From NCBI GenBank assembly GCA_031260055.1, contig JAIRKQ010000030.1, positions 1 to 59,622 on the forward strand: a stretch of DNA of 59,622 nucleotides. The letters are read 5' to 3'. The position numbers were made by a program, and so were the translations under genes. The notes under the pieces were generated by a model. That model saw only the letters and a program-made list of their open reading frames with translations. It ran no database searches and had not been told where the DNA came from. The first letter of the stretch is position 1. Each line of letters opens with the position of its first letter. The stretch is from Puniceicoccales bacterium (GTDB lineage: Bacteria; Verrucomicrobiota; Verrucomicrobiia; Opitutales; JAIRKQ01). Positions 19,918 through 21,182 of this stretch are shown piece by piece.

Positions 19918-21182
19918 ATGACTGGTTCATTAGAGTCTACAGGGGAGATTCAAAAGGACCTGCAACCTGTTGAATCTCCTCAGCAACAAGGTAGGATTTC
20001 CACACATAAATCAATCTCTGGTTTTTCAACTAAGTGCCTTGGTTTGGCTTTAGAAAAATTATTATCTTCACGTTAAGCTGAAACTGAAGAACATAGGGGA
20101 AGTCCCGAAATTGAACGAATTGTTCAAAACATTGAAATAGGTAAATACGAAGCCGGATGGAAGGAAAAAATAGATGCTTTTTTTGCGGCCTTGCGTGAGC
20201 TTTTTTCTGGAAATTTCACTGAAATTTATACCAAAGAAATCGCCAGTAAATGCTGGTCAAAAATTGAAGATAAAAACACTTTCTTGAATAACGCATATGA
20301 GCTCATTGAGTCACCGGAAAATCAAGCCAATTTTAGTCAAAATTTACAAGCGTTGGCAAGGTTATGCTATGAAGATAAAGAGACACTTCATCATATACTT
20401 GGTCATTTTTTTAGCACAACCAATGTCAACAATGTCAAAGCAGATGAAATCGATGGTAAAATACAAATGTTAAACATGCTGGTTGATGCCTTTGCAACTT
20501 CCTTTGACAATGATATGGTCACTGAGTTTCGTACGGCACTAGCCAATCTGGTAGATGCGATAGCCTTAAATATACCAAATATCGAACAGAATGAATCATT
20601 TTTTTCTATGTTAGAAAACTTAGACAAATTGTGTGATAAGTGTAAAACAAACGACATACGTCTTGGCCAAAGGCCCTTTTCGAACCCTACTACTGCTGCG
20701 CTTGAAAAAATGTAGATAAAGTTTTTATGGATGTACTGTTAGAGTATTTTACTGCCACCGGAAACGACTCAAAGTTAAAGTATGGGAATTGCCTCCAAAC
20801 GTTAATTAAATTAAAGTCTCCAGTTCTACAATGGCGTGGGATAAATATGGCTCAAGCGGGAATGCAACTGGAGAACATGTTGGCAGATAAAAATTTCACA
20901 GGACATATCATGGGTTATTTCAATTGTATCGGCAATCCAAGCAGGTTCCAATCACAAATTGAAAGTATACGCACGATACTGTCACAACACTGCAAAGAGT
21001 CTGAATTAAGGGCTAACTTCATATCATTTCTAAATGAAAATCCCGAAATCAAAGAAGCATTTTCTAATATTTACGGATCGGAAGATGATTGTCAATATTT
21101 TAACCTGTTAATGTATTTATTTAATTACCGTGGACAGATGCCATTTTTAACTTTAATTGAAGACGCTATGAGAGTCACATAA
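19918..21182 (+). pseudogene. Disrupted member of an unknown helical protein family (paralog of 54545-55855)
   Basis: ATG 19918 is in frame with ORF 20191-20715 through an in-frame TAA at 20074-20076. Adding one A to the A6 run at 20705-20710 fuses it to ORF 20727-21182. The reconstructed ~421 aa aligns end to end with the 436-aa paralog. Confidence 0.85.

Follow-up and report, generated by a model that had tools for sequence, protein, structure and literature searches.

A probable, recently inactivated copy of an orphan modular gene family in a reduced Puniceicoccales genome

The stretch of DNA analysed here (the window, 59,622 nucleotides (nt) in all, to which coordinates without a contig name refer) belongs to a Puniceicoccales metagenome-assembled genome (MAG; G000, 938 kb in 34 contigs, 41% GC, 91% complete), and on its plus strand it holds, at 19879-21262, a gene that is broken into three pieces. 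The locus probably carries a gene copy that was inactivated recently and that belongs to an orphan family, modular and fast-evolving, of which an intact paralog (P0001) lies in the same window. We propose that the segment formed one transcription unit, in which a gene of ~421 codons stood between a promoter-like site and a terminator-like hairpin, and that two lesions would have put this gene out of action, a premature TAA at codon 53 and a shift of the frame by one base in a short poly-A tract. The features on which this reading is built are the following:

19879-21262, plus strand, extent within which the broken gene is reconstructed (~421 codons, one transcription unit proposed)
19879-19906, plus strand, strong promoter-like site TTGACA-16-AATAAT (11/12 matches), ending 11 nt before ATG 19918
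19918-20073, plus strand, piece A, 52 codons from the ATG
20074-20076, plus strand, lesion 1, in-frame TAA at codon 53, from translation
20077-20712, plus strand, piece B, N-terminal module and first half of the helical core with a CDKC motif, ending at TAG 20713-20715
20705-20710, plus strand, lesion 2, A6 run with frame change, from frame analysis
20706-21182, plus strand, piece C, second half of the helical core, towards the C-terminus, including YFNCIGNP and RANFISFLNENPEIKEAF; stop TAA at 21180-21182
21235-21262, plus strand, terminator-like hairpin and T-run, 3' of the broken gene
54545-55855 (also counted from 54464), plus strand, intact paralog P0001, 436 residues, disordered at 1-116, then an all-helical core

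One gene in three pieces

The frame of ATG 19918 encodes 52 residues before the TAA; beyond it the same frame is open for 212 further codons, up to TAG 20713-20715. The open reading frame (ORF) at 20727-21182 lies in another frame, which is preceded by TGA 20703-20705 and is open from 20706 onward. The two open frames overlap only across 20706-20712, in and just past the A6 run, and a single one-base frame change at this place therefore joins pieces B and C. The preliminary description had proposed that the two listed ORFs (20191 and 20727) and an unlisted one of 52 residues were a single gene, interrupted first by a stop (TAA, codon 53) and then by a one-base change in the A6 run; the frames and the colinear homology to the ORF at 54545 bear this out, translation placed the stop where it had been reported, and every motif pair that had been quoted between the broken copy and the ORF at 54545 was present in the translations.

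Piece B matched P0001 at 30% identity (BLASTP, E 4e-17, residues 118-292 in the 463-residue numbering) and piece C (20706-21179) at 32% identity (E 9e-24, residues 296-458 of 463). The two matches are colinear, without a large gap or deletion, and P0003, a further family member, was also similar. Piece B in addition matched the profile of the N-terminal module (N-module) of the family over profile positions 51-170 with E 3.5e-37 (E 1.1e-42 in a later profile run). The CxxC motif is present in the broken copy, as CDKC, and the five aligned C-terminal domains (C-domains) have 13 invariant columns, at each of which piece C has the family residue; it breaks none that is invariant in the other four. 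An uninterrupted reading frame is absent from this copy, and no stops were found in pieces B and C beyond the two lesions. The inactivation looks recent because there are no further stops, the paralog is matched colinearly over its full length and no invariant column is broken in piece C.

Position of the premature stop within the gene

The TAA is placed inside the gene because homology and coding signal precede the first canonical start that follows it, the TTG at 20191. The interval 20077-20190, which contains no ATG, GTG or TTG, gave an in-frame coding score of 0.425, the maximum of the locus, and family homology begins within it, 3-19 codons past the TAA; a start at TTG 20191 would remove the conserved ExGxYExG and ~20 homologous residues. 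The promoter-like site with the family box, shortly before ATG 19918, and the terminator-like hairpin behind the last stop likewise enclose a unit in which the TAA is internal. Piece A was assigned to the gene because it is in frame with piece B, because of the upstream coding signal and because the family promoter box stands before ATG 19918. It probably corresponds to the N-terminus of the gene, a fast-evolving and disordered part for which homology is not demonstrable. The in-frame codon score of piece A (0.09) was ambiguous (genes, 0.26 +/- 0.11; off-frame windows, -0.07 +/- 0.11), and the chance of 52 open codons, estimated from base composition, is ~0.04. Of the 371 long ORFs of the genome, 160 end in TAA, more than in any other stop codon. 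A reassigned stop codon or a suppressor tRNA was rejected as an explanation of the TAA, as the standard code is used and no suppressor was present among the 38 tRNAs found by aragorn in the 91% complete assembly.

Alternative explanations

It is very unlikely that the organism has an intact gene and that both the TAA and the short A-run arose as errors of sequencing or assembly. The source is a MAG, and homopolymers are classic error sites, but two independent errors of different kinds would be required, and a run of A6 is short for a systematic short-read error. Moreover, a Logan contig of run SRR14710918, found via the exact product of the 174-residue ORF and built by a different assembler (probably from the same data), was 100% identical to window 17191-23715 (6,525 bases), both lesions included (in the same exact-product look-up the 151-residue ORF had no record as called; the start chosen by the Logan gene caller gives 111 residues). 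The identity of a second assembly across the lesions argues against an assembler artefact and says nothing on minor variants. In the intact relatives the site homologous to lesion 2 is a poly-A tract that encodes Lys-Lys (A8 in P0001, at 55353-55360; A6 in the genes of G012 and P0003), through which P0001, P0002 (the ortholog of P0001 in G012) and P0003 read in one frame. From this alignment, lesion 2 is taken to sit at a conserved, slippage-prone coding tract, and the A8 run of P0001 (GAA AAA AAA) is a likely hotspot for the same type of lesion. A phase-variation (contingency) switch, by which the gene would be turned on and off across the population, is suggested by the change of frame in a homopolymer and by the poly-A tracts of the intact relatives, but we regard it as highly improbable: A6 is short for a contingency tract, the conserved Lys-Lys explains by coding alone why the tract is there, the upstream TAA would hold the gene off at any tract length, and one tract length was seen in both assemblies.

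Less improbable, and still unlikely, is that the locus continues to yield protein, either by restarts at TTG 20191 or a non-canonical start and at ATG 20727, or as a slippage-fused product truncated at its N-terminus. The open frames of pieces B and C, the unbroken family-invariant columns of piece C, the promoter-like and terminator-like sites, which are intact, and the position of ATG 20727 only 12 nt past the TAG are what this explanation would lead one to expect, and the missing Shine-Dalgarno sequence means little here (such sequences precede 26% of the long ORFs genome-wide versus a background of 16%, which is uninformative on translation of the split ORFs). ATG 20727, however, is a conserved internal Met of the family and no new start, restart at TTG 20191 entails the loss of conserved residues described above, and the product would be without its N-terminal 90 residues, where a secretion signal is expected. 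The preliminary description had suggested that slippage at the A-run might still give some fused product. This idea fared poorly, because bacterial transcriptional slippage has been described on runs of 9 A or T (PMC5009743) and the run here is A6 only, because the zero-frame codons at lesion 2 (CTT GAA AAA ATG TAG) include no X XXY YYZ heptamer and the codon following AAA is ATG, not a stop, and because the upstream TAA would still remove the N-terminus; a slippage rescue of any consequence is unlikely.

Several observations weigh against a recently inactivated copy of a putatively secreted family. The similarity of piece A to P0001 was not significant (BLASTP, E 0.37), and against a profile of the family N-termini its score fell inside the range of 1,000 shuffles. 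The lesions are documented by two assembly consensuses, and a consensus error common to both, or heterogeneity at the sites, could underlie them. The two downstream ORFs have a TTG and a conserved internal ATG as their starts, in a genome with low use of Shine-Dalgarno sequences, so they may be translated as fragments. No ortholog of the broken copy was found in the species-representative genomes of the family, in 5.8 billion proteins (query P0001), in 1.84 billion cluster representatives (with a profile mainly of the N-module) or in JGI metagenome contigs (queries piece C and the C-domain alignment); the word recent is therefore based only on the lack of further damage. Finally, the secretion of any family member by a type III secretion system (T3SS) is something that we infer. 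Inactivation of the copy nevertheless remains the reading that we prefer, and the following sections deal with the family to which it belongs.

The family, its shared module and its fold

The C-domain, with the pattern CxxC ... YFNCxGNP ... RANFIxFL, has very few members: P0001, P0002 (syntenic with P0001, 62% identity), P0003 (47% identity), a divergent gene of G015, a remnant next to hydA in G008, and the broken copy. The preliminary description had pointed to a conserved CxxC and YFNCxGNP; the first was kept in all five aligned members, but the second is missing from the G015 member (480 residues), which retains the CxxC. In its N-terminal part (about residues 27-200), P0001 contains a separate helical module of ~120-170 residues that other genes share; an iterated profile found this module at 8 loci in G000, including six other ORFs with different, repeat-rich C-termini. 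The earlier view of an unknown family of two copies thus holds insofar as no known relative was found, but not in its number, as the N-module occurs in at least six other genes of the genome. Five of these ORFs, placed by the profile, are:

G000:C28:43467-45650, N-module ORF
G000:C23:2927-4726, N-module ORF
G000:C23:4896-7160, N-module ORF
G000:C3:67244-68641, N-module ORF
G000:C3:68958-70232, N-module ORF, at the contig end

In a 909-residue ORF (G000:C32:3296-6022) the N-module stands near the C-terminus (residues 744-869, E 1.6e-29), an unusual position for this module. Contig C23 also encodes an ORF of 727 residues (G000:C23:10320-12503) with internal duplications and a recurring CG[MI]HxLNHF[VL]GK motif; it had a sub-threshold Pfam match to Peptidase_C12 (UCH; 20.6 bits versus a cut-off of 27), and by this resemblance it may be a deubiquitinase-like protein.

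With a profile mainly of the N-module, 66 proteins were recovered among the 1.84 billion cluster representatives. Pfam and PDB sequence profile searches of the family gave no meaningful match. The AlphaFold2 model of P0001, computed from an alignment of 10 rows, had a mean predicted local distance difference test score (pLDDT) of 73.9 and a predicted template modelling score (pTM) of 0.69. Residues 1-116 were disordered (pLDDT < 50) and hydrophilic; residues 117-436 were all-helical, with pLDDT mostly 80-97 from ~130. A Foldseek search of this model against the PDB returned nothing at E <= 0.001 (best E 0.08, template modelling score ~0.2, generic helical repeats), and the structural check that had been recommended for a known housekeeping fold thus came out without a match. 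In the members of the family as we describe it, a disordered N-terminus, the shared helical N-module and variable C-terminal domains follow one another, with a private promoter in six intact copies.

Promoters of the family

P0001 is preceded by a promoter pattern that appears private to the family:

54491-54518, plus strand, TTGACATT-N14-TAAACT, exact pattern, family promoter of P0001

The exact pattern occurs 6 times in the 938-kb genome (window 54491-54518, G000:C3:67189, C3:68904, C23:2873, C23:4842 and C28:43414), always at a distance of 53-55 nt before the ATG that is proposed as the start of an intact N-module gene. The spacer and the leader are also conserved, and promoter and leader are far more so than the proteins, whose module identity is just 21-28%. 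The conservation of promoter and leader over diverged proteins suggests regulatory constraint and a private regulon. The broken copy has the TTGACATT box 38 nt ahead of ATG 19918, and its ATATTTTT..ATG element lines up with the start sites of other family genes. Its promoter is without ~19 nt that include the TAAACT box of the six intact copies and has another -10 element (AATAAT) at 16 nt, and the full pattern at 53-55 nt before the start is thus missing from this copy.

At the contig edge, an ORF on the minus strand (window 1-273, 91 codons visible, ending in FFTDLEQGKFDPG) has TTGACAT 37 nt upstream of its ATG and a short leader that resembles that of the broken copy. The match of its visible part to the N-module profile was not significant.

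Chromosomal slots and turnover

The broken gene has rtcB (18532-19674) on one side and kdsA (21277-22125, minus strand) on the other, and the segment that holds it is private to this genome:

19738-21245, plus strand, private segment with the whole broken gene unit, delimited by tblastn synteny and by boundary alignment with the G002 spacer

The same slot is empty in G002 (RtcB 97% identical), G006 and G013, where the two genes are ~130 bp apart, and in G001 (G001:C14) it is occupied by an unrelated gene of 649 residues with GT8 and GT1/UDPGT-type glycosyltransferase domains. In the slot that P0001 occupies, upstream of hydA, the gene is intact in G000 and G012 and reduced to remnants beside hydA in G008 (C71) and G006 (C49; 22 residues, E 0.002); nothing was detectable in this slot in G002, G013, G001 and G010. 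Copies of the N-module number 0-8 per genome. It is present in 10 of 10 genomes of the subclade in which SctV is 96-98% identical and in one genome of another genus, and it was found in none of G003, G005, G007, G011 or genus g2. Several of its matches lie in short open frames or contain stops, and G000 itself has a second degraded N-module remnant with in-frame stops (C23:10053-10205), downstream of the two tandem family genes of C23. Orthologs of P0001 were 47-62% identical, versus 97-98% for SctV, 91-97% for RtcB and 82-88% for HydA in the same subclade. The birth-and-death turnover that had been proposed from the broken copy agrees with this range of copy numbers, with the remnants and with the variable slots; the broken copy would represent the 'death' phase, in a variable chromosomal slot.

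The organism and type III secretion

All genomes of relatives in the same taxonomic family are 0.7-1.0 Mb. The verrucomicrobial 'Nucleococcus cluster' comprises endosymbionts of termite-gut protists with genomes of ~1 Mb (PMC8204192), and this MAG possibly belongs to it. An injectisome cluster (G000:C28:48435-52367) was identified, with SctV at 916 bits (cut-off 692), SctX above its cut-off, SctY just under it (68.8 versus 70 bits) and weak, sub-threshold SycN-like and TyeA-like matches; it lies 3 kb from the family member C28:43467-45650. No match to a VirB4-type type IV secretion system was found in G000. SctV was present in 22 of the 23 genomes of the taxonomic family (83-98% identity), and because it is nearly universal, a comparison of the presence of the T3SS with that of the gene family across genomes is uninformative.

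Members of the gene family are putative T3SS substrates, a reasonable assignment that we make tentatively. The mechanism that we propose is that a gene family restricted to reduced (0.7-1.0 Mb) Puniceicoccales genomes, all of which would keep the injectisome, encodes proteins for interaction with the host that would be secreted, possibly by the T3SS, and whose evolution proceeds by birth and death.

The inactivation of the gene is in itself routine decay in a reduced genome; what is moderately interesting is the family with its promoter. The broken gene serves as a marker that ties the two dispersed genes of the window to a wider orphan family, which differs strongly among genomes with 91-98% identity in their core genes and which is the most obvious candidate for a host-interaction set in a little-studied lineage of small-genome Puniceicoccales. 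A more far-reaching and rather doubtful idea is that the N-module and the TTGACATT-N14-TAAACT promoter mark an undescribed regulon of type III-secreted proteins in a reduced verrucomicrobial symbiont lineage, possibly the 'Nucleococcus cluster': the module might be a translocation or chaperone-binding domain to which host-targeting C-domains are reassorted, the helical CxxC domain might be one such warhead, and the broken copy might reflect ongoing loss. If the N-module does direct secretion, its profile and the promoter box would provide a handle for listing effectors in uncultured symbionts.

Comparison with known systems

T3SS effector sets in which a shared N-terminal translocation module is joined to different C-termini include the 'STE' effectors of Salmonella (SifA, SseJ, SspH and SlrP), and such combinations have been termed 'terminal reassortment' of effectors. 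The family described here is similar in that a conserved N-terminal module is combined with unrelated C-terminal domains in several paralogs, and its shared promoter suggests common regulation, as in the 'STE' effectors. The 'STE' modules, however, have no sequence similarity to the N-module, which is longer and helical and which, in the model, runs on into the core domain without a break.

The effector families of Parachlamydiaceae show a birth-and-death pattern (Domman et al. 2014, PMC4209131) that the turnover seen here matches. Both cases concern lineage-specific, expanded families with fast turnover in host-dependent bacteria of the Planctomycetes-Verrucomicrobia-Chlamydiae (PVC) group that have a T3SS, and in both, close relatives have very different numbers of copies, and pseudogenes and remnants occur. 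The families of Parachlamydiaceae differ in carrying eukaryote-like domains (F-box, BTB, LRR) and in that a heterologous type III secretion assay supports their secretion (PMC4209131), whereas the family here, whose secretion is putative, has no known domain or fold, 0-8 copies and a much smaller genome around it.

In Buchnera and Blochmannia, poly-A frameshifts in endosymbiont genes are rescued by polymerase slippage (reviewed in PMC5009743). The broken copy likewise shows a frame change in a homopolymeric A tract in a symbiont with a reduced genome, but the runs in the review are of 9, as against A6 here, and the second lesion, the TAA, lies beyond rescue by slippage. Within the same genome, a comparison is provided by the tandem array on contig C3, which shares the N-module and the private promoter (C3:67189, C3:68904); its copies are intact and have C-termini of the repeat type, whereas the broken copy is dispersed and carries the helical C-domain with CxxC and YFNCxGNP.
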